Of a stretch of DNA of 64,000 nt, positions 1 through 44,191 are shown one piece after another. A program made the position numbers and the translations under genes. How positions within the stretch are numbered: the stretch's first letter is position 1; the number at the start of each line of letters is the position of its first letter. The notes under the pieces were generated by a model that saw only the letters and a list, made by a program, of their open reading frames with translations, did not search any database and was not told the DNA's origin. The stretch comes from Escherichia coli (GTDB lineage: Bacteria > Pseudomonadota > Gammaproteobacteria > Enterobacterales > Enterobacteriaceae): assembly GCF_016903815.1 (NCBI RefSeq), contig NZ_CP069973.1; one strand, 5' to 3'.

Positions 1-219
1 GCTGGCGGACACTGTACCGGCAAAATCAATGCCTGGCACCATTGGAAAGTGCCGGACGATAGGCCCGCGGCCCGTAATAGCCAGTGCGTCTTTGTAGTTG
101 ATAGATGAACAGTCGACATTGACCTCCACATCCCCCTGTGGCAGCTCGCTTTCAGCGATTTCAGCAATTTGGGCACTGTGGCGGTCATCCATCTTACTGA
201 TTAATAATGATTTAAACAT
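1..219 (-). CDS. Partial CDS (N-terminal part; continues beyond window start): YhdH/AcuI-like MDR-superfamily NADPH-dependent oxidoreductase
   Basis: Reverse-strand translation from ATG at 217-219 reads MFKSLLISKMDDRHSAQIAEIAESELPQGDVEVNVDCSSINYKDALAITGRGPIVRHFPMVPGIDFAGTV, which aligns with the N-terminus of E. coli YhdH/AcuI (SSLNYKDALAITGKG...PMIPGIDFAGTV). Not the K-12 yhdH locus, so probably island cargo. Confidence 0.6.
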   Translation of the reverse strand, partial: MFKSLLISKMDDRHSAQIAEIAESELPQGDVEVNVDCSSINYKDALAITGRGPIVRHFPMVPGIDFAGTVSAS

Positions 220-872
220 TTTTTTTCTCGTCTTTCTGGTTTGATGTCATTGAGCTATAAAGTAGTCAATAAACAATATTGACCGATCGTCTAATAATCA
301 ACGCTGATATCCCAGTGTTTGTCAGAAAACAAGAATTGCTTTTCTTTTCATCAGGTTAAATCTATCTTTTTTGATTTATATCAAACCAGATTCGGTCTTC
401 AATTATATAGGCATCAATGTTAGCGGTCCTACAAGATACGCAGTCGATGCTTCAGGGCGTACTGATGAAATAAAACAAGTAGGCTGAGATTAGTTGGTCT
501 GCTCATCGCTCACAGCGGACCTTCAGCTTCGTTAGCCAAGCGCTGACATAGTTACCGATGTAGCGTGTTAATCTGTCGGGAGCATAGCCGAAATCACTTA
601 ATCCATTAGACTTCACCTAAAACTGCAAAAATTACCGTCTTTGTCACACTCACCGAGTTTAATCAAACTAACACTGTACATAGTGCGAACAAGAGCCAAC
701 CAGAAAGACTGTTCAGCATCAACAGTGAAGTTTTTCCCCGCCACTTCCCCGCAATTCCTCCGCAGTTTTCCCACTAGAGAGTTCGACACATCCCTTGCAT
801 ACCAACGCTTTGATTCAAATCTCGGTAGTGCATCCAATTAGTAGAATATGTGTTTTTCGATAAATGCTCCGA

Positions 873-1232
873 TCACTTTTTCGTGGATCTCAACTGAGCG
901 TGAGAAGCAGATTGTTTACGAGCCAACCGCTTAATGTGGGTGCGTAGCGTCAGATTATTACGCTCAATGCGTTGGGTGAATATTTTGCCGGTCAGATGCT
1001 TATTCTTCGGCACCACCCGGCCATAGCTGTCCCAGTCATCGCTGGTGAGCATGCCGATGTTGAAGGGTGTAAGCAGTGCCAGTAGCTCCCGGCACGTTTG
1101 ATTGGTTCGGGGACCAAAAGTGTAGGCCAGTACACCGCCTGTTTTGGTGTTGTACGCGTACCAGAGCCAGTGTAGCCGGGCTTTACTGCCAACGTAGCTC
1201 CATTGCTCATCAAGCTCGCAGATAAGCGCCAC
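873..1232 (-). CDS. insB: IS1-family InsB-like transposase segment (probably expressed as InsAB' by -1 frameshift, or N-terminally truncated)
   Basis: 119 aa ORF ...CELDEQWSYVGSKARLHWLWYAYNTKTGGVLAYTFGPRT... matches the IS1 InsB catalytic region (compare [25 protein letters not shown]...). Confidence 0.7.
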   Translation of the reverse strand: MALICELDEQWSYVGSKARLHWLWYAYNTKTGGVLAYTFGPRTNQTCRELLALLTPFNIGMLTSDDWDSYGRVVPKNKHLTGKIFTQRIERNNLTLRTHIKRLARKQSASHAQLRSTKK

Positions 1233-1258
1233 ATCAGCATGGGCAACAGGCGAAGAAG

Positions 1259-1531
1259 TTATTTGCGTTGGCGCGAGTTTTTTAAAGTCCGGATGATGGT
1301 GTTAATACCAATTTTCAGTGTCCTGGCGGTATCGCGAACCCCGGCACCATTAAAGGCCATTTCAGTGATCATCTCTTTCATACCCGGCTTACGTGCTTGA
1401 TAAGTATAAGTGAGCTGAAACACACGGTGGCAGTCACGGCAGCGAAATCTGTCACGGCCTTTAGGGTTCTGACCATGGCGGTAAACCTGAGCTGACTGAC
1501 AACGGGGACAATGAATATTAACGCTGGCCAT
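1259..1531 (-). CDS. insA: IS1-family InsA-like protein (zinc-finger/HTH transposition regulator)
   Basis: 90 aa MASVNIHCPRCQSAQVYRHGQNPKGRDRFRCRDCHRVFQLTYTYQARKPG...; CxxC...CxxC pattern and colinearity with canonical IS1 InsA. Confidence 0.8.
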   Translation of the reverse strand: MASVNIHCPRCQSAQVYRHGQNPKGRDRFRCRDCHRVFQLTYTYQARKPGMKEMITEMAFNGAGVRDTARTLKIGINTIIRTLKNSRQRK

Positions 1532-1783
1532 GAGATAACCTCAAAAGCCCGTATTATACATCAGATTCAACCAATTAGAGGCATCACCCTTTCCTACATT
1601 CGTAGGACTTTGATTACATATAGCAAGGGTTAATTCTTATATACATAGAATAAATTAGGAATATAATGAATTTTATCGTGACGACCTTATTTATAATTAA
1701 TTTATATCGTCAGAGAAATTAGTGTCCACAACATGAAGCCTTACAAAGAGATTCTATGATTTAAAAAAAATAAGAGCCAGCTT

Positions 1784-3253
1784 ATGCATATCGATTCGAC
1801 TGAAAAAAATAATAAACAAAAGTTGGGCTTGCTTGCGCTAACATCCATTGTCGTGAGCTCGATGATCGGCAGCGGCGTTGACGGACTCCCCCAGAATATG
1901 GCGGAGAATTCTGCCGTGGGCCCGGTGGCGATAGCATGGATAGTCTGTGGTATCGGCATGTTTTTCATCTCCAGAACTTTTATCGTGCTGTCAAACATTA
2001 GACCTGATCTCCAGTCAGGAGTTTATATGTATGCCCGGGAAGGGTTCGGCCGATTTACGGCATTTAACGTCGCCTGGGGCTACTGGCTGATGACTATATT
2101 CAGCAACGTCGCCTTTGCCATTATGGTGATGGATACGCTGAATTATTTCTTACCAGGTGATTTCAAGGGAGGGAACAATATTCCTTCCGTTATCGGTGCC
2201 TCTTTGCTGATATGGGGATTCAACTTTTTAGTCCTCTCCGGTACCCGCATTGCCGGGTCGATTAACATCGTCGGCACGCTGGCCAAACTGATCCCGCTGG
2301 TGGCCTTTATTATTATTCTCATGCTGTTTATGAAGTACACCACGTTCGCAGATAACGTCTGGGGGCACAGCGCGAGTAAGGCCAGTCAGGACCTAGGCTC
2401 TATTTTCTCACAGGTAACTTCACCGCTTAGCGTGGCACTCTGGAGCTTCATCGGCGTTGAGGGGGCTGTCGCTCTTTCCGGTCGGGCCAAAAATAAACGC
2501 GACGTGGGTAAAGCCACATTCATTGGCTTCGTTGTATCACTGATTATCTGTCTGCTGGTCTCCATCCTGCCGTTTGGCGTGCTGACTCAACATGAGCTCA
2601 GCGCAATTCCAACCCCATCCACCGCCGGTATTCTGAAGATTGTTGTCGGTGAATGGGGGAAGATTATGATTATCTTGGGGGTGCTGATTTCGGTGCTTAC
2701 CAGCTGGCTGGCGTGGACCATCATCTGCGCCGAACTGCCTATGGTGGCCGCGCAGAACGGCACATTCCCGAAACCGTTCAGCAAAAAAAATGTGAAGGGT
2801 TCGGCCTCGGTTTCGCTTTATATAAGCAGTGCGTTTATGCAAATCGTCGTACTTCTGGTCTACTTTTCTAACGATGCCTGGCTTGCAATGCTGGCTATCT
2901 CTACCCTGACCGTTTTACCTGCGTATTTAATGACCACGGCATACCTGTTTAAACTATGTATTAGCGGCGAGTATGCCAGCTATACCACGAATCACAGCCG
3001 CAGCGCCGCGCTGGTCAGCAGTATTATCGGCTTTGTATTCTGCCTGTTTATGTTCTACGCCAGTGAAATCAAATATCTGGCGATGGTTCCGGTGCTGCTT
3101 ACGCTGGGCGTGCCCCTGTTTATCTGGGCAAGAAAAAAAGACGATCGCGCAGATAAAATATTTACGCTACGCGAACTGGCATTTTTTATTTTACTGCTGG
3201 TCCTCGACATCATTGTTTTTATTCTACTGCATTATAAAACGATACATTTTTAG
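1784..3253 (+). CDS. ArcD/YdgI-type basic amino acid/polyamine antiporter (APC superfamily, APA family), copy 1
   Basis: 489 aa; ATG at 1784 with AAGAG RBS; N-terminal KLGLLALTSIVVSSMIGSGV..LPQNMA motif and GVEGAVALSGRAKNKRDVGKAT motif typical of ArcD/YdgI arginine:ornithine-type exchangers; multiple hydrophobic helices. Confidence 0.85.
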   Translation: MHIDSTEKNNKQKLGLLALTSIVVSSMIGSGVDGLPQNMAENSAVGPVAIAWIVCGIGMFFISRTFIVLSNIRPDLQSGVYMYAREGFGRFTAFNVAWGYWLMTIFSNVAFAIMVMDTLNYFLPGDFKGGNNIPSVIGASLLIWGFNFLVLSGTRIAGSINIVGTLAKLIPLVAFIIILMLFMKYTTFADNVWGHSASKASQDLGSIFSQVTSPLSVALWSFIGVEGAVALSGRAKNKRDVGKATFIGFVVSLIICLLVSILPFGVLTQHELSAIPTPSTAGILKIVVGEWGKIMIILGVLISVLTSWLAWTIICAELPMVAAQNGTFPKPFSKKNVKGSASVSLYISSAFMQIVVLLVYFSNDAWLAMLAISTLTVLPAYLMTTAYLFKLCISGEYASYTTNHSRSAALVSSIIGFVFCLFMFYASEIKYLAMVPVLLTLGVPLFIWARKKDDRADKIFTLRELAFFILLLVLDIIVFILLHYKTIHF

Positions 3254-3357
3254 TCCAGATTAATTCACAGCAAGTTAAGGTGACGATAATGTCTGTTTCT
3301 TGGGCATGACATCCTCACAGTTAAATACTATCTGAACAGTAACAGTGGAGACACCTA

Positions 3358-5727
3358 ATGAAATTTAACCACAATCTTTTATTTATTTCCTCACAATATC
3401 TTGATGGCGACAACCCTTCGCAGCAGGTACTGGAAGAGCTTCAAACCGAACTCGCGGAACGCGGTTTTAAAATTCATATCACGCACCAGATCTCTGATGG
3501 ATTAAAAATCATCGAAAAAAGCCCCCAATACAGCGGGATTGGTTTTTACTGGGAGCCAGACAATCCGACCTTTGCAGAAGAGCTACAGCACTTTATCAGC
3601 ATATTCCGCAAAAGAAATGCCACGACGCCGCTGATAATTTTCTCAGAACAGAATATTACCGATCGTATCCCACTCGACGTCTTAAAAGAGGTCAGCGAAT
3701 ATGTTTATCTGTTCTCTGAATCCGCAGCCTTCACTGCCAATCGACTGTACTCCTTAGTCCACCGCTATGCGGATAAGCTTCTTCCTCCCTACTTTAAAAC
3801 CCTTAAGGACTTTACCGAGGACGGTGACTATTACTGGGACTGCCCGGGGCATATGGGGGGAATGGCCTATCTGAAACATCCTGTTGGCATTGAGTTCATT
3901 AACTTCTTTGGCGAAAACATGATGCGCGCTGATATTGGCGTGGCTACCGCGGAGATGGGGGATTATCTGATCCACGCCGGACCGCCTAAAAAATCGGAAG
4001 AAATTGCGGCCCGACTGTTTGGCTCTGATTGGACCTTCTACGGTGTTTCCGGCTCATCGGGGTCGAACCGTATTGTGGCCCAGGCTGCGGTTGGCGCAGA
4101 TGAAATTGCCATTATTGACCGAAATTGCCACAAGTCACTTAATCATGGCCTGACCTTGTCTCAGGCAAGGCCGGTTTACCTGAAACCTACCCGCAACGCG
4201 TGGGGGCTGATTGGGCCTATCCCGACCGGACGCCTGAAGAAGGCCAGTATTGATGCGCTGGTGGCAAACAGCCGACTGGCATCTGGTGCGGTCAGCCAGT
4301 CCCCGTCCTACGCCGTGGTAACCAACTGCACCTATGATGGCTTCTGTTATAACGTGAACGATGTAGTCAGACACCTGGGTGAAAGCGCACCGCGCATCCA
4401 TTTTGATGAAGCATGGTATGCCTATGCGCGTTTCCATCCGCTATACCAGAGTCGCTATGCAATGGACGCGGAGGAAACGCCAAATCGTCCAACCCTATTC
4501 GCCGTACAGTCCACCCATAAAATGCTGCCCTCACTCTCCATGGCCTCAATGATTCATGTGAAGAAAAGCGATCGCGCGCCGCTTAATTTCGATGACTTTA
4601 ACGATGCCTTTATGATGCACGGCACGACCTCACCCTACTACCCGATCATTGCATCAATTGATGTGGCAGTAAGCATGATGGAGGGTGAATCCGGTTATTC
4701 GCTTGTGCAGGAGTCAATTGAAGAAGCGATTGCCTTCCGTAAAGCCGTGGTCAGCGTCAAGCGCCAGCTCCAGGAGCAGGAAGGTGGTGACGCCTGGTTC
4801 TTCGATGTGCTTCAGCCAACCGAAGTGCAGGACAGCGATTCTGGGCAGCGATACAGTTTTGAAGAGGCACCCGTATCGCTGCTGAGCCACAGCGCCGACT
4901 GCTGGTCGCTGCGCTCCGGTGAGCGCTGGCACGGTTTTGCCGATGATGATCTGGTCGAAACCAACAGTATGCTCGATCCAGTAAAAGTGACCCTGACTTG
5001 TCCAGGGATCGGCCCGAAGGGAGAATACCAGAAAAACGGTATTCCGGGATATTTGCTGACCCGTTTTCTCGATGACCGTCGCATTGAAATTGCCCGTACT
5101 GGTGACTACACCGTGCTGATCCTGTTCTCCGTCGGCATCACCAAAGGCAAATGGGGAACTCTGATTGAAAGCCTGCTGGCCTTTAAAAAGCATTACGACA
5201 ATGACGATCTGGCCACAGATGCTATCCCGTCGCTGAAAGCGCATTCTCCACACTACGACACGCTAACCCTCAAGGAGCTATGTCAGATAATGCATGAAAA
5301 AATGGATGAGCTGGAGCTGATGTCGCATATCAACGACGCGGTAAACACCGATCCGGAACCAGTTATGACCCCGGCAGAAGCCTATCAGAAAGTCGTACGC
5401 TACAAAACCGAGCATATCCGGCTGGATGATTTTAGCGGCAGAATTGCCGCCAGCATGCTCGTCCCATATCCCCCAGGCATTCCTGTACTGATGCCGGGCG
5501 AACGGATGCCGCAAGGTAACAAGGGCATTATTGGCTATCTGCGCGCCCTGCAGGAATTCGATAAGCAATTCCCAGGTTTTGAACATGAGATCCAGGGCGT
5601 TAACGTCGATGAAGACGGGGACTTCTGGGTCAGAGCGATTGTGGAAGAAGAACGCGATGGGCAGTCGCTACCCGGCCACATAACCTTTAAACGCCAGGTC
5701 TCTGGTATTAAAAAGGGCCGCCAGTAG
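3358..5727 (+). CDS. PLP-dependent Orn/Lys/Arg decarboxylase, AdiA/CadA/SpeF family (fold-I, with N-terminal wing domain); substrate not assignable from sequence
   Basis: 789 aa; GGAGA RBS before ATG 3358; conserved blocks shared with E. coli AdiA (YWDCPGHMGG, SGSSGSNRIV, DRNCHKSLNHGL, VVTNCTYDGFCYN, HFDEAWYAYARF, STHKML with the PLP-binding Lys, ASIDVAVSMMEG, MLDPVKVTL, KGKWGTL, PYPPGIPVLMPGE, FPGFEHE). Longer than AdiA (755 aa) with a distinct C-terminal tail. Confidence 0.9.
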   Translation: MKFNHNLLFISSQYLDGDNPSQQVLEELQTELAERGFKIHITHQISDGLKIIEKSPQYSGIGFYWEPDNPTFAEELQHFISIFRKRNATTPLIIFSEQNITDRIPLDVLKEVSEYVYLFSESAAFTANRLYSLVHRYADKLLPPYFKTLKDFTEDGDYYWDCPGHMGGMAYLKHPVGIEFINFFGENMMRADIGVATAEMGDYLIHAGPPKKSEEIAARLFGSDWTFYGVSGSSGSNRIVAQAAVGADEIAIIDRNCHKSLNHGLTLSQARPVYLKPTRNAWGLIGPIPTGRLKKASIDALVANSRLASGAVSQSPSYAVVTNCTYDGFCYNVNDVVRHLGESAPRIHFDEAWYAYARFHPLYQSRYAMDAEETPNRPTLFAVQSTHKMLPSLSMASMIHVKKSDRAPLNFDDFNDAFMMHGTTSPYYPIIASIDVAVSMMEGESGYSLVQESIEEAIAFRKAVVSVKRQLQEQEGGDAWFFDVLQPTEVQDSDSGQRYSFEEAPVSLLSHSADCWSLRSGERWHGFADDDLVETNSMLDPVKVTLTCPGIGPKGEYQKNGIPGYLLTRFLDDRRIEIARTGDYTVLILFSVGITKGKWGTLIESLLAFKKHYDNDDLATDAIPSLKAHSPHYDTLTLKELCQIMHEKMDELELMSHINDAVNTDPEPVMTPAEAYQKVVRYKTEHIRLDDFSGRIAASMLVPYPPGIPVLMPGERMPQGNKGIIGYLRALQEFDKQFPGFEHEIQGVNVDEDGDFWVRAIVEEERDGQSLPGHITFKRQVSGIKKGRQ

Positions 5728-5745
5728 GCGGGGGAAAGAACAATA

Positions 5746-5771
5746 CCGTCGGATCGCCTGCAATCCGACGG
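5746..5771 (+). promoter_or_regulatory. Intercistronic stem-loop between the decarboxylase and the downstream antiporter (possible attenuator or mRNA processing/stability element)
   Basis: Inverted repeat CCGTCGGAT-cgcctgca-ATCCGACGG (9-bp stem) in the 74-bp spacer; no strong T-run follows. Confidence 0.4.
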
Positions 5772-5801
5772 CAATATTATAGAATAGCTGAGGGAAACGT
5801 T

Positions 5802-7301
5802 ATGGCAGAGCAATCTTCAGATGTAAAAAATAGTGACAATAGCGCCGGAGGACATAAGCTGGGGCTTATATCCCTCATCGCTATTGTCGTTAGCTCCATG
5901 CTGGGAGGCGGCGTTTTCAGTCTGCCGCAAAACACGGCGGCCTCTTCTGCACTAGGGCCAGTAATCATTGCATGGATTATTGCCGGGATCGGTATTTATT
6001 TTATCGCAAACTCCTTTCGCGTACTATCAGATCTGCGCCCGGACCTTCAGGCTGGAGTGTATATGTATGCCCAGGAAGGTTTTGGTTCCTTTATTGGCTT
6101 TAACGTCGCCTGGGGCTACTGGCTGATGACCGCATTTGGCAACGTTGCCTTTGCGGTAATTTTAATGGATGCTTTTAATCAGTTTATGCCGGGGGTTTTT
6201 ACGGATGGTAATAATCTGAACTCCATTATCTGCGGCTCAGTGCTGATCTGGGGCTATAATTTTCTTGTTCTGTCCGGGACGAAAGTGGCCGGATTTGTTA
6301 ACACCTTGGGAACCATCGCCAAGCTCGTCCCTCTGATCCTATTCGTATTACTGCTGGGTGTGCTGATCGATTATTCGGACCTGTTTAAAAACTTTTGGGG
6401 AGAATCACCCGCGATCCTCAGTGGCAACGGAAATGACGCCGCACCAGTATCGCTGCTGTCTCAGATTCTGGCACCGATGACCGTAACGCTCTGGGCCTTT
6501 ATTGGCGTCGAGGGAGCGGTTGTTCTATCCGGACGTGCCAAAAATAAACAGGACGTAGGGAAAGCCACACTGATCGGCTTTCTGCTGGCGCTAATTATTT
6601 ATATGTTAATGTCCATTCTGCCGTTCGGTGTAATGCCTCAGGCAGAACTAGCGCAGGTCAGTAACCCCTCTACCGCAGGCGTGCTCGCCCACGTTGTCGG
6701 TCAGTGGGGCGACTGGCTGATGAGCGCGGGGCTGATTATTTCTGTTCTGGCCGGCTGGCTTGCCTGGACCATGCTATGCGCTGAAATACCGATGGTAGCA
6801 GGACAGAAAGGCGCTTTCCCGCGCGCGTTTGCCCGAACGAACAGTAAACAGGCGGCCAATGTGTCACTGTGGGTTAGTAGCTTTGTGATGCAGGCGGCCA
6901 TGTTACTTGTTTATTTTTCAAATAATGCTTGGACCACCATGTATAATATCAGTGCGCTGATGGTTGTTCCGGCCTATATTACCACCACGCTGTATCTGAC
7001 CAGTATTTGCAGAAACGGAAAATATGATCAGTATGCAAAAAAAGGCCGCAGGCTGGCTTTGTCCAGCGGTGTTTTAGGCTCGCTATTCTGTCTGTTTATT
7101 CTTTACGCCAGCCAGATTGAGTATGTTGCATTAATTCCTATCCTGTTGACCTGTGGTCTGCCGGTCTTTATCTGGTCAAGAAAAGAAAAAAATGATGGTC
7201 AGCCGATATTTACCAAAAAAGAGCTGATTTATCTGATTATGCTGTTGCTGTGCGATATTATCGTCGTTGCCCTGTTTATTGGTGGATATTTAAAGGTATA
7301 A
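5802..7301 (+). CDS. ArcD/YdgI-type basic amino acid/polyamine antiporter (APA family), copy 2 (paralog of 1784..3253)
   Basis: 499 aa; GAGGGA RBS; same motifs as copy 1 (KLGLISLIAIVVSSMLGGGVFSLPQNTA, GVYMYAQEGFG, FNVAWGYWLMT, GVEGAVVLSGRAKNKQDVGKAT) with long collinear identity. Confidence 0.85.
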   Translation: MAEQSSDVKNSDNSAGGHKLGLISLIAIVVSSMLGGGVFSLPQNTAASSALGPVIIAWIIAGIGIYFIANSFRVLSDLRPDLQAGVYMYAQEGFGSFIGFNVAWGYWLMTAFGNVAFAVILMDAFNQFMPGVFTDGNNLNSIICGSVLIWGYNFLVLSGTKVAGFVNTLGTIAKLVPLILFVLLLGVLIDYSDLFKNFWGESPAILSGNGNDAAPVSLLSQILAPMTVTLWAFIGVEGAVVLSGRAKNKQDVGKATLIGFLLALIIYMLMSILPFGVMPQAELAQVSNPSTAGVLAHVVGQWGDWLMSAGLIISVLAGWLAWTMLCAEIPMVAGQKGAFPRAFARTNSKQAANVSLWVSSFVMQAAMLLVYFSNNAWTTMYNISALMVVPAYITTTLYLTSICRNGKYDQYAKKGRRLALSSGVLGSLFCLFILYASQIEYVALIPILLTCGLPVFIWSRKEKNDGQPIFTKKELIYLIMLLLCDIIVVALFIGGYLKV

Positions 7302-7443
7302 GTCCGAGTTAAATCTTTACTGGGCTAGTAATGCCGCCTTTTAAACAAGAAGGGCGGCAATCTTACTGAAATTAGTATGCTGCAAATCGGTAATGCTGCC
7401 AACTTACTGATTTAGTGTATGATGGTGATTTTAAGGTGCTTGC

Positions 7444-7719
7444 GTGGCTTCCATTTCCATCAGATGTCCTTCCTGCTCCGCTACTGAAGGCGTGGTGCGT
7501 AACGGCAAAAGCACTGCCGGACATCAGCGCTATCTCTGCTCTCACTGCCGTAAAACATGGCAACTGCAGTTCACTTACACCGCTTCTCAACCCGGTACGC
7601 ACCAGAAAATCATTGATATGGCCATGAATGGCGTTGGATGCCGGGCAACTGCCCGCATTATGGGCGTTGGCCTCAACACGATTTTACGTCACTTAAAAAA
7701 CTCAGGCCGCAGTCGGTAA
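7444..7719 (+). CDS. insA: IS1 InsA
   Basis: 91 aa [91 protein letters not shown]. Confidence 0.95.
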
Positions 7720-8141
7720 CCTCGCGCATACAGCCGGGCAGTGACGTCATCGTCTGCGCGGAAATGGGCGAACAGTGGGGCTATGTCGGGGCTAAATCGC
7801 GCCAGCGCTGGCTGTTTTACGCGTATGACAGGCTCCGGAAGACGGTTGTTGCGCACGTATTCGGTGAACGCACGATGGCGACGCTGGGGCGTCTTATGAG
7901 CCTGCTGTCACCCTTTGACGTGGTGATATGGATGACGGATGGCTGGCCGCTGTATGAATCCCGCCTGAAGGGAAAGCTGCACGTAATCAGCAAGCGATAT
8001 ACGCAGCGAATTGAGCGGCATAACCTGAATCTGAGGCAGCACCTGGCACGGCTGGGACGGAAGTCGCTGTCGTTCTCAAAATCGGTGGAGCTGCATGACA
8101 AAGTCATCGGGCATTATCTGAACATAAAACACTATCAATAA
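7638..8141 (+). CDS. insB: IS1 InsB (expressed as InsAB' fusion by frameshift)
   Basis: 167 aa ORF ...[40 protein letters not shown]...[10 protein letters not shown], canonical IS1 InsB. Confidence 0.95.
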
Positions 8142-8156
8142 GTTGGAGTCATTATC

Positions 8157-8949
8157 TAACCGTAGCGTTTATTACGCGCAGGTGACGCGTCCTGTTAATG
8201 TGCAAAGAATTGACTTACGAAGTCGGGTGAGGGCTTTCCATGCTCTCAGTCGTGGCGCAGCCGGTAGCCGTGCAATCAGTCAGATGTTGCGCCAGAGTAG
8301 CGTTGATGCAGGCCGGTGGCTGGCACGACGACTGATGCGGGAATGCGGGCTGACAAGTCGACAGATGGTTAAACATCACTACCGGGTCAACGAAGACAAA
8401 AGTCCGCCATTGCCAAATTTACTGAACCGGCAATTTCACCCCGCCGCACCAGACCGCGTCTGGTGCGGCGACATCAGTTTTATTCGCCTGCATGACAAAT
8501 GGTGTTAGCTCGCGCTCGTTGTTGATTTATATTCACGGCGGATTACCGGTTCAGCCCTCTCATTAACCGCTGATGCTGAGTTGGTGTGTAGGGCTTTGCG
8601 TAATGCACTGGAAACACGATCACGTGATGGCCGTCTGCTGTTTCATTCAGATCAAGGTGTTCAGTATAAAAGCAATAAATACAGAAAGTTACTCTGGCGT
8701 TATGGGGTAATGCAAAGTATGAGTTGCAGAGGGAATGGCCTGGATAATTCGCCGATGGAAAGAGTCTTTCGCAGCCTTAAAAATGAATGGCTTCCGAAAG
8801 GTGGTTATGGTGATTTTATCCATGCGGTACGTGATATAAACCAGTGGATTAATGGTTATTACAACGTTTATCGACCTCACACGAACAACGATGGTTTACC
8901 GCCTTGCTTACATGAAGAAAAGTGGAAACAGGTTATTCCGGTGTCCTGA
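8157..8949 (+). pseudogene. IS3-family transposase OrfB remnant: 5' part (OrfA and start of OrfB) removed by the IS1 insertion, plus an in-frame TAG at 8506-8508
   Basis: Single reading frame translates ...[49 protein letters not shown]...[11 protein letters not shown]...[13 protein letters not shown]...[15 protein letters not shown], collinear with IS3/IS2-type OrfB; the amber codon sits where family members have Tyr (WLYLAVV). 3' end of the element not precisely located (probably within ~40 bp after 8949). Confidence 0.8.
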
Positions 8950-9166
8950 TTTTGTGAACCACTACAATAATCCTTTTTCACAGACTTGTCAGCAGCCAGC
9001 ATTTATGTTCTTTTACCTGCGGGAATTTATCCGTCTGCCTGTCGGGACTACTCTGTCATACAGAAATCAGGTAGGAATAAATTGTAGTGGAAAGTCGATG
9101 TTTACCGGATGACTGATGCGCGCTTGTACACAGACAGTGTGTTTCAGTAATATGGAGAATAATGAA

Positions 9167-9667
9167 ATGAATAACACAGACACATTAGAAAAAATAATCA
9201 GACACCAAAAAAACAAAGACCCCGCATATCCCTTTCGGGAACATTTGTTGATGCAGCTCTGTATTCGCACAAATAAAAGAATGCAGGATAATATATCTGA
9301 ATTTCTGGGGGCGTATGGAATAAATCACTCAGCATATATGGTTCTCACCACATTATTCGCAGCGGAGAACCATTGTCTGTCACCTTCAGAGATAAGCCAG
9401 AAACTTCAGTTTACCAGAACTAATATTACCCGCATTACAGATTTTTTAGAAAAAGCCGGATATGTAAAAAGGACGGATAGCAGGGAGGATCGCCGTGCTA
9501 AAAAAATCAGTCTGACATCTGAAGGTATGTTTTTTATTCAGAGGCTCACTCTTGCACAAAGCATGTATCTGAAAGAAATCTGGGATTATCTGACTCATGA
9601 TGAACAGGAACTGTTTGAAGTCATTAATAAAAAATTACTGGCACATTTTTCTGATGCCAGCTCATAA
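9167..9667 (+). CDS. MarR-family transcriptional regulator, EmrR/MprA-like (possibly a PapX/SfaX-type 17-kDa regulator)
   Basis: ORF 9116..9667; likely start ATG 9167 after GGAGA. Sequence ...YPFREHLLMQLCIRTNKRM...GINHSAYMVLTTLFAAENHCLSPSEISQKLQFTRTNITRITDFLEKAGYVKRTDSREDRRAKKISLTSEG... aligns with EmrR (winged-helix region [28 protein letters not shown]). Surrounded by AT-rich DNA. Confidence 0.8.
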   Translation: MNNTDTLEKIIRHQKNKDPAYPFREHLLMQLCIRTNKRMQDNISEFLGAYGINHSAYMVLTTLFAAENHCLSPSEISQKLQFTRTNITRITDFLEKAGYVKRTDSREDRRAKKISLTSEGMFFIQRLTLAQSMYLKEIWDYLTHDEQELFEVINKKLLAHFSDASS

Positions 9668-10133
9668 AGTGCGAAATATCTGAGGATGCTGGATAGCTTC
9701 AGGCAAGAGAATAATGATTCTTGCAGATGTGTTTTTCCGGATACAAAAACAAAAGTAAAAAATTGCAGCGCCAGGCCACCTTTCAAAGCAGGGAGGCTTG
9801 TACCGCGTCGAAAATTTCAGCCAGTTAATGTAATTGTCTGAACCAGGCACTTCGCCCGGGCAGGAGAAGGAGCGTGGTTGCGGTCATCCTGTATACTGAA
9901 GTCGTTATGAAGGAATAATACAAATAATTGCCCGTTTTCTCTGTACGATAGAGGCAGGTGTGTATGATTGCATCACTATGTTTTTGTGATATAAAAAACT
10001 AAATGGTGAGATATGCATTTTAAAATATAACAAAAATCACCATGAAATAAGAATAATTATCCACGGAGAACATAAACTGCAGACTGTTACAATGCATGCT
10101 GTTCATCTTGACAATGTCGGTAATGACTCCAAC

Positions 10134-10637
10134 TTATTGATAGTGTTTTATGTTCAGATAATGCCCGATGACTTTGTCATGCAGCTCCACCGATTTTGAG
10201 AACGACAGCGACTTCCGTCCCAGCCGTGCCAGGTGCTGCCTCAGATTCAGGTTATGCCGCTCAATTCGCTGCGTATATCGCTTGCTGATTACGTGCAGCT
10301 TTCCCTTCAGGCGGGATTCATACAGCGGCCAGCCATCCGTCATCCATATCACCACGTCAAAGGGTGACAGCAGGCTCATAAGACGCCCCAGCGTCGCCAT
10401 CGTGCGTTCACCGAATACGTGCGCAACAACCGTCTTCCGGAGCCTGTCATACGCGTAAAACAGCCAGCGCTGGCGCGATTTAGCCCCGACATAGCCCCAC
10501 TGTTCGCCCATTTCCGCGCAGACGATGACGTCACTGCCCGGCTGTATGCGCGAGGTTACCGACTGCGGCCTGAGTTTTTTAAGTGACGTAAAATCGTGTT
10601 GAGGCCAACGCCCATAATGCGGGCAGTTGCCCGGCAT
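10134..10637 (-). CDS. insB: IS1 InsB
   Basis: 167 aa, identical in translation to the InsB at 7638..8141. Confidence 0.95.
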
Positions 10638-10831
10638 CCAACGCCATTCATGGCCATATCAATGATTTTCTGGTGCGTACCGGGTTGAGAAGCGGTGTAA
10701 GTGAACTGCAGTTGCCATGTTTTACGGCAGTGAGAGCAGAGATAGCGCTGATGTCCGGCAGTGCTTTTGCCGTTACGCACCACGCCTTCAGTAGCTGAAC
10801 AGGAGGGACAGCTGATAGAAACAGAAGCCAC
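10556..10831 (-). CDS. insA: IS1 InsA
   Basis: 91 aa [37 protein letters not shown]..., canonical InsA. Confidence 0.95.
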
Positions 10832-11360
10832 TGGAGCACCTCAAAAACACCATCATACACTAAATCAGTAAGTTGGCAGCATCACCCAATCTGCTGACAG
10901 ACGAAGATAATGAACCCGTTATGGTTTTTAACGGAGAGAGGAATGTACTGGCAGACAGTCTGAAACCACAGCCTCTGATTCTTCCGGTCAAGGGAAAATA
11001 AGCGTAATGTTCATCACCAGATTATGTACGATGAGTTTTCCACTGTTTATAGCAATTATCTTGCTAATAACCAGACAGGAGTAACCAGACCAACCGAAAA
11101 CACCGGGAAGGTGATTACCCGCTGGCAGAGGAAATCCGGTTTTTTTTGATGTCAGCCATAACGTGTTTGACAATAAAGCATCATGAAAGGGTGTTAATGA
11201 GTCCATGGGATAATTCATAAAAATAATTTACTGTGTTATCCTTTTCAAAAGAAATATTCAGAAGATAACCCCTGGCTGACAACCAGGGGAAGGGGGCATT
11301 AACAGTGTTATTATTGGTGAATAAATTATTACTTGTGTGCAGGATACACTAATGCAATAT

Positions 11361-12434
11361 CTACTGATACTGTATGCCAGTATGTTTCATGCCTGCCGCT
11401 GAAAACGGCAATATCCAGGGCCAGACATATTCACCATTCATATTTCTGCATTTCTGTACAATTTTCTCAGAAAGCGTCTCATCAATTCTTTCACGCAACT
11501 TCTCCTGCTGTCTTAAAATACTTTCGCATATTTCGAAATCATCTTCCTGCATCAGCATTTCGGCGCATTTAATGATTTCTGCCCGTTCATGCAGCACAGA
11601 GGAATGATTATAGAGCCAGTTTACAAACAGCAATGCTTCCGGATATTGCCCCCATAACGGGTGGTATGTGGCATAATAATCTTCGGCAGTATCCGGACCG
11701 CCTGAAAAGTTATGCCATACAGCAAGTGGAAATGGATGCAGATTTCCGCACAGTATTTCTGCGATGTAAGTATTTGCCGCAAAGCCGCGACGAAATGCAG
11801 TTGCAGCTTTTACCAGTTCCCCATTAAGAAAATGCAGAAGGCCGAGTTCATACCAGTAAGGTGAAAATTCATCTGCATGTTCCTGCAGTATATGGCGTGC
11901 CTGTTCATGAGCGCCAGTGCGTAACAGTTCCGGTCCCAGTAGCCAGCGTGCACCATGATTATCTTCGGGATTGTAATCCAGTATTTTTTCAATGAGCATG
12001 ATGGCATCCTGATGACGCCGTAAATGTGCATTTGCCAGGATTGCCGCATAGAGGGCACGAAGAAAAGGTCGGTTGTCAGGATGTATCCAGATGATTCTGC
12101 CACTGAAACCTTCAGGGATAAGACGATTGCCAACTGCCAGCCCTTTAAGGGCAGCATTCAGCGCCTTACGCGGGGCATTCTGCTCCAGAAATACGTATGC
12201 CAAGTGAGCGTGTACATCAATAAAGTCATTCTCCTGTCGGGCAAGGCGCCTGAGTTTGTTGATGTAACTTGTTTCGCTGATTTCATCCGCATCGTATGCA
12301 TCAATCAGTTCTTCAAACTCATCCAGCAACGAGCCAAACCAGGTTTCCGGAAATATGAAACAGCCCTGGTTATCGTTCACTTCAAAGCGTAATTTGCCAG
12401 TCATATTCTGAACCTGTAAAAAAGGATGGACCAT
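11361..12434 (-). CDS. Hypothetical protein (island cargo next to integrase); helical-repeat (TPR-like) character, function unknown
   Basis: 357-aa ORF (possible internal start at MTGKL...); no family recognised from memory; lies immediately downstream of the integrase region inside the pheU island. Confidence 0.55.
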   Translation of the reverse strand: MVHPFLQVQNMTGKLRFEVNDNQGCFIFPETWFGSLLDEFEELIDAYDADEISETSYINKLRRLARQENDFIDVHAHLAYVFLEQNAPRKALNAALKGLAVGNRLIPEGFSGRIIWIHPDNRPFLRALYAAILANAHLRRHQDAIMLIEKILDYNPEDNHGARWLLGPELLRTGAHEQARHILQEHADEFSPYWYELGLLHFLNGELVKAATAFRRGFAANTYIAEILCGNLHPFPLAVWHNFSGGPDTAEDYYATYHPLWGQYPEALLFVNWLYNHSSVLHERAEIIKCAEMLMQEDDFEICESILRQQEKLRERIDETLSEKIVQKCRNMNGEYVWPWILPFSAAGMKHTGIQYQ

Positions 12435-12616
12435 AACCTGCAGGCTATAAAAATTGTGATGCCTGGCATCGGTGTCCTTTTATTGTCCGGGATTAACGTT
12501 GCCCATGATAATACAGTGAATTCTGTTCTGTGGTAAGACGTTGAGTTATTGAATGAGAACCTCAGCCTGGCTGATGGTTCCGCCGGCATAAAAAAGAAAT
12601 TGATTGAGGCGGGTGC

Positions 12617-12640
12617 TCTTCCCCTTAAGAGGAAGAGCAT
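12617..12640 (-). terminator. Near-perfect 12-bp inverted repeat just downstream of the integrase stop (possible terminator or protein-binding palindrome)
   Basis: GCTCTTCCCCTT/AAGAGGAAGAGC palindrome with one mismatch; T-run on minus strand is somewhat distal. Confidence 0.35.
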
Positions 12641-12659
12641 GTGTGTAAATGGCGTTCAG

Positions 12660-13925
12660 TCACCTTTTCAGTGGATTGTTAACTTTTGCATATTCAAACG
12701 GACTGATACACTCCTCCCTGTTTGCATCCAGAAAATCTGCCCACCATTGCAGCATAAGCCGACGTTCTTCCAGATGTTCTGCTTTATGAATATACGCGGC
12801 ACGTACTCCGTTGCGCTCCTGATGACTCATCTGACGTTCAACCGCATCTCTTGACCATAAGCCGGATTCAATCAATGCACTGCACGCCATCGCCCGGAAT
12901 CCATGGCCACAGACTTCCTTGGTTGTGTCATACCCCATCACCCTCAGGGCTTTATTTACAGTATTTTCACTGATTGGTTTACGCGGGTCATGTGCACCCG
13001 TAAATATCAGACCATTTTCACCTGCCCATGTCTGAAGTTCTGTCAGTATGGCTACAGCCTGTTTACTGAGTGGCACAAGATGTGGTGTCCGCATCTTGGA
13101 GCCCCGGTGTGAGAATTTTACGCCAGGCAGAGGTTCGCGTTCGGCTGGAATAGTCCACATGGCATTGTCAATATCAATTTCAGACCAGCGGGCATATCTG
13201 AGTTCACTGGAACGAATAAAAACCAGTAAATTCAGCATAACGGCAAGCCGGGTGACAGGCTGGCCTTTATAACCGTCAATACGCGACAGAAGTTCAGGCA
13301 GGCGTGAAAGATTCAGAGCGGGGCGATGCTGGCGTTTTACCGTGGTCAATGCACCAGCCATATCCAGAGCCGGGTTATATCTGATGATGCCAGACTGTAC
13401 GGCGTAACGCATTACAGCAGATATTCTTTGCTGCAGACGACTAGCGATTTCATAAATTTGTTTTGCTTCTGCAGCACGAACAGGGATAAGCAGGTCCGGG
13501 GTATTGAGTGTTGTGATATCCCGGTTGCCGATAAAGGGGAAAACGTGTGTCTCGAGGCTTTTGAGTACTTTATCGCTGTGTGATTGTGCCCATTGTTTAT
13601 TACTGGCATGCCAGCGTCGTGCAATATGTTCAAAAGAGAGCTGTAAATCAGGGACTACTTTTTTAACTCTTTTCTGTTCGCAAGGGTCAATCCCCTCTGA
13701 AATCAGTTTTCGGGCCTCATCCCGTTTTGTACGAGCTTCGGAGAGAGAAACTTCTGGATACACACCAAGTGCCAGAGTCTTCTCCTTACCCAGAATACGA
13801 TAACGGAGACGCCAGTAACGGGAACCATTAGGATGAACCAGCAGGAACATGCCGGCCCCGTCAGTGAGTTTATAAGCCTTGTCAGTGGGCTTTGCAGCCC
13901 GGATTTTTGCGTCAGTCAGTGCCAT
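12660..13925 (-). CDS. P4-type (phage/island) tyrosine integrase, tRNA-associated
   Basis: 421 aa MALTDAKIRAAKPTDKAYKLTDGAGMFLLVHPNGSRYWRLRYR..GKEKTLALGVYPEVSLSEARTKRDEARKLI...; C-terminal region with HGFRAMACSALIESG...R and catalytic-type motifs; adjacent to the 3' end of tRNA-Phe. Confidence 0.93.
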   Translation of the reverse strand: MALTDAKIRAAKPTDKAYKLTDGAGMFLLVHPNGSRYWRLRYRILGKEKTLALGVYPEVSLSEARTKRDEARKLISEGIDPCEQKRVKKVVPDLQLSFEHIARRWHASNKQWAQSHSDKVLKSLETHVFPFIGNRDITTLNTPDLLIPVRAAEAKQIYEIASRLQQRISAVMRYAVQSGIIRYNPALDMAGALTTVKRQHRPALNLSRLPELLSRIDGYKGQPVTRLAVMLNLLVFIRSSELRYARWSEIDIDNAMWTIPAEREPLPGVKFSHRGSKMRTPHLVPLSKQAVAILTELQTWAGENGLIFTGAHDPRKPISENTVNKALRVMGYDTTKEVCGHGFRAMACSALIESGLWSRDAVERQMSHQERNGVRAAYIHKAEHLEERRLMLQWWADFLDANREECISPFEYAKVNNPLKR

Positions 13926-14085
13926 AGTTCAGCCTTCTGAATGCGTTAAAGAGGGTATAAATTCTGTCGAACTGGGGTATGCCCACAATTATACCCACAC
14001 AATGAGGTTGATGTGGGGGGAATCTGGTTGAGTTCGGTAGAATTGATTTGGAGGCAGGACGCTTAAATCGTGGCGTCCTGGAATG

Positions 14086-14110
14086 AAAAACGGACCTCCG
14101 TGGAGGTCCG
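14086..14110 (-). terminator. Rho-independent terminator of pheU
   Basis: Palindrome CGGACCTCCG-TGGAGGTCCG followed (on minus strand) by a T-run, immediately 3' of the tRNA. Confidence 0.7.
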
Positions 14111-14122
14111 TTGATATGAATT

Positions 14123-14198
14123 TGGTGCCCGGACTCGGAATCGAACCAAGGACACGGGGATTTTCAATCCCCTGCTCTACCGACTGAGCTATCCGGGC
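14123..14198 (-). tRNA. pheU: tRNA-Phe(GAA)
   Basis: Reverse complement reads GCCCGGATAGCTCAGTCGGTAGAGCAGGGGATTGAAAATCCCCGTGTCCTTGGTTCGATTCCGAGTCCGGGCACCA (76 nt, CCA end, GAA anticodon). Confidence 0.97.
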
Positions 14199-43771: not shown

Positions 43772-43847
<76 letters not shown>

Positions 43848-44004
43848 AAATTTGAAAAGTGCTGCAAAGCACAGACCACCCAATCGCAGTATTTCGAATT
43901 GCGACAAGGCGGCAACTGAACGAATCCTTGGGAGCTTACAAAAGTAAGTGACTAAGGTGAGTGAAGGCAGCCAAGGCAGTAGCGGTTCGAAAGACGAAGA
44001 TTAA

Positions 44005-44080
<76 letters not shown>

Positions 44081-44115
44081 AAATTTGAAAGTGCTGTAAA
44101 GCACAGACCACCCAA

Positions 44116-44191
<76 letters not shown>

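Follow-up and report, generated by a model that had tools for sequence, protein, structure and literature searches.

The gene at positions 9116-9667 of the window, as we call the whole 64,000-nucleotide stretch of DNA analysed, is identified here by sequence comparison as an intact orphan papX, a member of the PapX/SfaX/FocX group of 17-kDa MarR-like regulators, and it is what remains of a fimbrial operon that insertion sequences have taken apart. It is probable, in our view, that the promoter of this papX is still active and that the product continues to dampen flagellar expression, uncoupled from P fimbriae.

An orphan papX between inverted IS1 copies

The regulator gene, the elements on either side of it and the gene cluster to their left are laid out in the window as follows.

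1784-7301, plus strand: antiporter, Orn/Lys/Arg-family decarboxylase (789 aa) and second antiporter, within an IS-bounded module (window 600-8156)
7389-8156, plus strand: left IS1 copy, whose inner end cuts an IS3-family element and which closes the decarboxylase/antiporter module on the right
8157-8966, plus strand: IS3-family remnant, the 3' 810 bp with an internal stop; the right terminal repeat ends at 8966
8967-9166, plus strand: papX proximal promoter and leader, from alignment with intact pap, foc and sfa loci
9116-9667, plus strand: papX coding sequence, 183 codons (PGAP), with a 166-codon version from 9167 in the same frame
9668-10118, plus strand: papX 3' flank, with a terminator-like hairpin at 9703-9724, ended by IS1
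10119-10886, minus strand: right IS1 copy, inverted with respect to the left copy, with its exact end at 10119

This layout agrees with the initial annotation, which had described an orphan MarR-type regulator between inverted IS1 copies, with an IS3 remnant and IS1 upstream and the end of an IS1 at 10119. The left IS1 has the ends GGTAATGCTGCC...GAGTCATTATC, and the two copies, which leave ∼1.96 kb in between, are 98% complementary over 766 nt. PGAP annotates the IS3 remnant in strain S88 as an IS3 family transposase pseudogene, and matches to IS3 only stop at query position 810, which is window position 8966. Both junctions of the right IS1 recur in the pheV islands of ST131, Nissle and CE10. 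The 3' flank had been described as ∼450 bp of very AT-rich DNA; the length is right (451 bp), but the composition was overstated, the flank having 39.7% GC compared with 38.0% for papX, and just its final ∼220 bp dropping to 32%. An Rfam scan of 8900-10200 at E values up to 1 returned no structured RNA. Matches in generic σ70 promoter and terminator scans were at chance level, the promoter scan taking spacers of 16-18 bp, to which the published papX promoter with its 19-bp spacer is invisible.

A composite IS1 transposon was considered and rejected, as there is no matching 9-bp target duplication: the outer flanks of the pair, CTGCAAATC and CAATCTGCT, mismatch, and the inner flanks mismatch too. 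That neither IS1 has a target duplication fits deletion and recombination rather than simple insertion, and the two copies are the outcome of distinct events and of deletions and did not come in together as a transposon.

The papX reading frame is not disrupted, its 183 codons being open throughout. A Shine-Dalgarno sequence, GGAG at 9154-9157, lies nine bases 5' of the 9167 start, and it is this start that fits the residue numbers T35, A97 and M103 of Luterbach and Mobley (PMC6246914), which correspond to positions 52, 114 and 120 in the 183-residue form. A MarR winged-helix domain (Pfam PF01047, residues 69-128, E = 2.1e-11) is recognised in the product, which also matches MarR-family structures. 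In our gene search set of 5,426 complete E. coli genomes the ORF was matched in 1,387, with DNA matches at 97.3-99.5% identity carrying the annotation papX and those at 95.8-96.6% the annotation sfaX.

The PapX proteins whose genes follow papG-II or papG-III directly in intact pap operons are 96% identical to the window protein; for a foc-linked X protein the figure is 95%, for SfaX of IHE3034 it is 93%, and ST131 strains, EC958 included, have a PapX that differs by a single residue (A66V, 99% identity). Residues T35 and A97, which tell PapX from FocX (PMC6246914), are both present in the window protein. Compared with operon-linked PapX, the window gene has 14 base differences, and the codon changes divide into 8 nonsynonymous and 4 synonymous, a count that is compatible with relaxed constraint and cannot separate it from adaptation. 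Among the sequences compared, A73, N85, F178, S179 and A181 are substitutions of the orphan lineage only. The protein retains K54 and R127, which we take to be functionally required in PapX.

The best NCBIfam model for the product is MprA (NF008122, E = 5.4e-35), as would be the case for an EmrR/MprA-type efflux regulator that had been stripped of its pump genes. However, the score of 120.7 bits is below the equivalog cutoff of 157, the identity to PapX is 96%, the flanks are pap, foc or sfa sequence, and neither emrAB nor any other efflux gene occurs in the window flanks or in any relative examined. The comparative data already refute such an origin, and we assign it a vanishingly small probability. 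Set against EmrR/MprA on the one hand and PapX, SfaX and FocX on the other, the protein falls with the latter, which bears out the PapX/SfaX type proposed in the initial annotation; the accompanying observation that no cognate efflux operon lies next to the gene is correct in that none was found, but beside the point for a gene that is not an EmrR-type efflux regulator. In S88, whose DNA is identical to the window across 8800-10300, the protein (WP_001447126.1) is labelled merely 'MarR family transcriptional regulator', as it is in ATCC 11775 and in many other genomes, and in all of these the gene should be read as papX.

Descent from a pap operon

The breakpoints of the pap remnant were taken from pairwise blastn against intact operons. 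Homology starts at 8967, the base after the IS3 right terminal repeat, where the break is visible in the alignment, and from there it reaches 9733 in a papG-II operon, 9951 in a papG-III operon and 10118 at the foc operon end, the point at which IS1 interrupts.

Window positions 8860-11000 have collinear counterparts (99.6% identity) in ST131 strains, EC958 and Nissle 1917: the end of the IS3 element, papX with its 3' flank, the right IS1 and, after it, the hypothetical-TPR-integrase-tRNA-Phe side. In these strains the left IS1 is at 8860, and papA'-papB-papI lies beyond it. ST131 has been reported to retain papA, papB, papI and papX beside mobile elements, with the suggestion that regulatory pap genes may stay for trans-acting roles (PMC8281228).

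A query in which the part of the IS3 element absent from the window was joined to window sequence found the complete element adjoining papX in 70 genomes. The meningitis strain CE10 carries, in order, papI-papB-papA-IS1-fimbrial subunit-papF-papG-complete IS3-MarR protein-IS1(-)-hypothetical-TPR-integrase-tRNA-Phe. At 7985-10886 of the CE10 sequence compared, IS1 comes straight after papA, papH to papK are missing, a frameshift divides papG, and a complete IS3-family pseudogene stands before papX. Window 8153-11400 and CE10 are collinear at 99.75%, and the CE10 MarR protein has the same accession as that of S88. The papX DNA of CE10 and S88 is 0-1 bases apart, while neighbours such as papA and papG are frameshifted.

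CE10 preserves an intermediate stage of pap decay, and it is this intermediate state, along with the papG-papX collinearity and the papI-papB-papA' of ST131, that makes the relic of an IS1-deleted fimbrial operon, one of two origins offered in the initial annotation, the right reading of the window gene. Between the IS1 copies and in their vicinity fimbrial genes are absent, so that papX does not stand here at the 3' end of a fimbrial operon. Given that the flanks are pap sequence, and that in CE10 papF-papG and the IS3 element precede a gene for the same protein, we judge the fimbrial neighbours to have been lost secondarily.

The decay can be pictured in three steps. First, an IS3-family element would have landed in the papG-papX interval, 19 bp before the papX -35 hexamer; IS1-adjacent deletions would then have removed the left part of the IS3 element and all of the pap structural genes, to an extent that varies by lineage; and a second, inverted IS1 would have truncated the 3' flank, 42 bp short of the next gene.

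At the right-hand end of this flank the initial annotation had seen the start of a truncated downstream gene. The sequence in question, ATGCATGCTGTTCATCTTGACAATGTC, is present at 10092-10118, but in the uninterrupted foc locus of strain UPEC957C its ATG opens a frame of only 21 codons, and we reject the truncated gene as a chance frame. The true next gene in UPEC957C belongs to the STM1630 family and starts 42 bp past the window IS1 site; a gene of this family is absent from the window. In 40 of 40 sampled genomes the 3' flank is without a gene annotated by PGAP.

The decarboxylase module, the inverted segment and the island

The cluster at 1784-7301, which was found in 494 of the 5,426 genomes, is bounded on the left of its module by a divergent IS1-family element (∼800-1570, InsA 46% identical) and on the right by IS1. 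Its decarboxylase scores 740 bits against an AdiA equivalog cutoff of 1167, and both antiporters fall under every equivalog cutoff. Strain 027_SK3 carries at pheV a stretch collinear with window 600-8154 (98.1%) that is without papX and that consists of the divergent IS1-family element, the cluster and the left IS1 to its inner end, with the same cluster-IS1 junction. The left IS1 thus belongs to a separate IS-bounded module, and the junction of that module with the pap remnant is an IS1 event. That the left IS1 doubles as the right end of an unrelated module explains the adjacency of papX and the cluster.

The other origin offered in the initial annotation was that the regulator had been recruited to control this amine decarboxylase/antiporter cluster. 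The two are close together and, in the window orientation, on the same strand, and proximity is all that speaks for such a link. Cluster and left IS1 exist without papX in 027_SK3, however, just as ST131, Nissle and CE10 have an orphan papX but no cluster; 177 genomes carry the papX segment in the opposite orientation to the cluster; a full IS1 and the IS3 remnant lie in between; and the window holds no PapX-type site. With each found without the other and in either orientation, recruitment fails as an account of the gene, and we hold it to be very unlikely.

A related idea, to which we give a similarly slight chance, is that in window-type islands read-through from the decarboxylase/antiporter operon across IS1 and the IS3 remnant could transcribe the orphan papX, acid or amine stress then repressing flagella, and that the orphan-lineage substitutions (A73, N85, F178, S179, A181) might also have shifted the regulon. 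Co-orientation is the one observation in favour of read-through, and the inverted and ST131 forms are without that link.

In S88 and ATCC 11775 the IS1-bounded segment that carries the IS3 remnant and papX is inverted compared with the window, such that the integrase side meets IS1 by the IS3 remnant and the decarboxylase cluster meets IS1 by the papX 3' flank. With a 5-kb query across both junctions, 127 genomes showed the order of the window and 177 the inverted order. In either order the base at IS1 position 4, close to the outer end of the element, goes with the outer flank, which is the outcome expected of recombination inside the IS1 copies. The window copies differ at 14 sites, 12 of them in a block at positions 40-91. 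In S88 and in ATCC 11775 a strain's own two copies differ at one site, yet the copies differ between the strains, and the near-identity within each pair suggests gene conversion between the inverted copies. Given that CE10 and ST131 have the window-type right junction, the window orientation is ancestral.

With both orientations this common, and with an inner segment that is identical whichever way it lies (1,962 bp, 10 of 10 genomes compared), one could imagine the 1.96-kb segment to be a reversible switch that alters what reads into papX. In the ten genomes, though, a single SNP haplotype in the decarboxylase module, and at the first variable site towards the integrase, is common to all inverted copies, and the same IS1 and IS3 remnant lie directly upstream of papX in either orientation. 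Recurrent flipping is rejected for these ten genomes on the strength of the single haplotype, one historical inversion would be enough to explain the data, and a switch of this kind seems to us highly improbable.

Depending on the strain, the module with everything from the decarboxylase through IS1, IS3 remnant, papX and IS1 to the integrase occupies pheV or pheU, and both orientations occur at both sites, the placement having been made by comparison of CUVET20-PYO4 and SF-468 with window 1-14198. This distribution implies that the island has been transferred or exchanged between the two tRNA-Phe genes. The integrase/TPR side at 10887-14122 is mosaic, with a block of ∼40 SNPs that is common to the window and PEC1013 and absent in eight other carriers, which suggests recombination within the island. 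Elsewhere in the window, three tandem tRNA-Gly(GCC) genes at 43772-44191 look like an ordinary glyVXY-type cluster.

Promoter, flagellar target and known systems

Both papX and focX have a promoter of their own, which has a 19-bp spacer and whose transcription start site (TSS) precedes the ATG by 144 bp (PMC6246914). In the window the -35 hexamer, TTGTCA at 8986-8991, and the TSS adenine at 9024 match those of intact operons, with 19 bp between the IS3 end and the -35. The putative -10 hexamer at 9011-9016 reads TTTTAC in the window and in the ST131 orphans, EC958 being identical to the window, compared with TTTTAT in every aligned operon-linked pap, foc and sfa locus, and this T-to-C change at 9016 might weaken the proximal promoter. 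The identity to EC958 spans window 8860-9311 and includes the whole upstream region.

The papX gene of EC958 (EC958_3259) is itself an IS1-flanked orphan, and hypermotile cells showed a strong enrichment of Tn5 insertions in this gene, with a logFC of 8.76 (PMC5425062). This result bears on the alternative that the ORF is intact only for lack of time, with no useful expression and no function. The altered -10 hexamer, the 8:4 ratio of nonsynonymous to synonymous changes and surroundings made up entirely of IS debris would all suit a silent relic. Yet EC958 becomes hypermotile on papX insertion with an identical upstream sequence and a protein differing by A66V alone, the exact 183-residue protein is found unchanged on at least 1000 contigs of a large protein collection, and between CE10 and S88 papX has stayed the same to within a base in company with frameshifted papA and papG. 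We therefore regard silence as rather unlikely, if clearly less so than the other alternatives, and prefer the reading of a papX that is expressed and active.

PapX is known as the regulator that shuts flagella down while P fimbriae are produced in uropathogenic E. coli. The site to which it binds spans 29 bp and has its centre ∼410 bp upstream of flhD, and upon binding flhDC transcription and swimming fall; overproduced PapX and FocX each repress flhD and motility, and deletion of papX makes CFT073 hypermotile, with a slight effect in vivo (PMC6246914). The flhDC genes lie outside the window, and their upstream region was surveyed in the 5,426-genome set. The 29-mer used in our searches, which we take to be the PapX operator, is present once per genome, between uspC and flhD, in 5404 of these 5,426, centred ∼419 bp upstream of the annotated flhD start. 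No match to it with three or fewer mismatches occurs anywhere in the 64-kb window, where the best match is 19/29 compared with 17-20 in shuffled sequence, and the absence of a PapX-type site from the window argues that there is no local target.

Under the preferred reading, papX would be transcribed from the retained proximal promoter (TSS ∼9024), the pap operon promoter no longer being used; the dimeric winged-helix product would bind the 29-bp site upstream of flhD and lower flhDC transcription; and flagellar synthesis and swimming would be dampened irrespective of fimbrial expression. The loss of the operon promoter, which normally contributes to papX transcription, counts against function. 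Whereas the identity and the descent of papX are read directly from its sequence and that of its relatives, for expression and target binding in the source strain we infer what is likely from near-identical genes.

The orphan state of papX is common and already described, and it is a case of ordinary IS-driven decay, while the pheU arrangement beside the decarboxylase module and the inversion of the segment appear to be undescribed details. That many ExPEC lineages keep papX intact after the loss of P fimbriae fits a trans-acting role uncoupled from fimbrial expression, a role already suggested in PMC8281228, with support from the EC958 transposon screen (PMC5425062). Beyond annotation, the significance of the present case is small.

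Of the systems with which the window gene can be compared, PapX of CFT073 is the 3'-terminal product of a pap operon and a MarR-like repressor of flhDC (PMC6246914). The window gene resembles operon-encoded PapX in its protein (96% identity), in the upstream region with the -35 hexamer and TSS, and in the first 66 bp of the 3' flank. In contrast to CFT073, there are no upstream pap genes and so no polycistronic transcription, an IS3 end stands 19 bp upstream of the -35, and the -10 is TTTTAC rather than TTTTAT. The protein itself differs by eight substitutions, with a FocX-like T at a wing position where PapX has M and with the C-terminus HFSDASS in place of HLDDVSS.

With SfaX and FocX the window gene shares 93-95% identity and the same promoter region, and the sequence that follows a foc operon is collinear with the window 3' flank as far as 10118 (95.8%). 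Unlike the window gene, however, these genes have sfaY before them and an intact gene after them (of the STM1630 family, or iroN). The likeness to MprA (EmrR) extends to the MarR fold and to the best-scoring NCBIfam model, whereas the window gene stays below the equivalog cutoff, is without emrAB and has a different locus and history.

The orphan of EC958 and Nissle 1917 is the closest counterpart, with one residue (A66V) and 5 bases across 8860-10118 differing. The right junction of the EC958 orphan is identical (papX flank-IS1(-)-hypothetical-TPR-integrase-tRNA-Phe), and inverted IS1 copies lie on both sides in each. The two differ in where the left IS1 has cut, at 8157 in the window and at 8860 in EC958; in what lies beyond it, the decarboxylase module in the window and papA'-papB-papI in EC958; and in the tRNA site, pheU for the window and pheV for the EC958 orphan, for which TraDIS provides evidence of motility repression.
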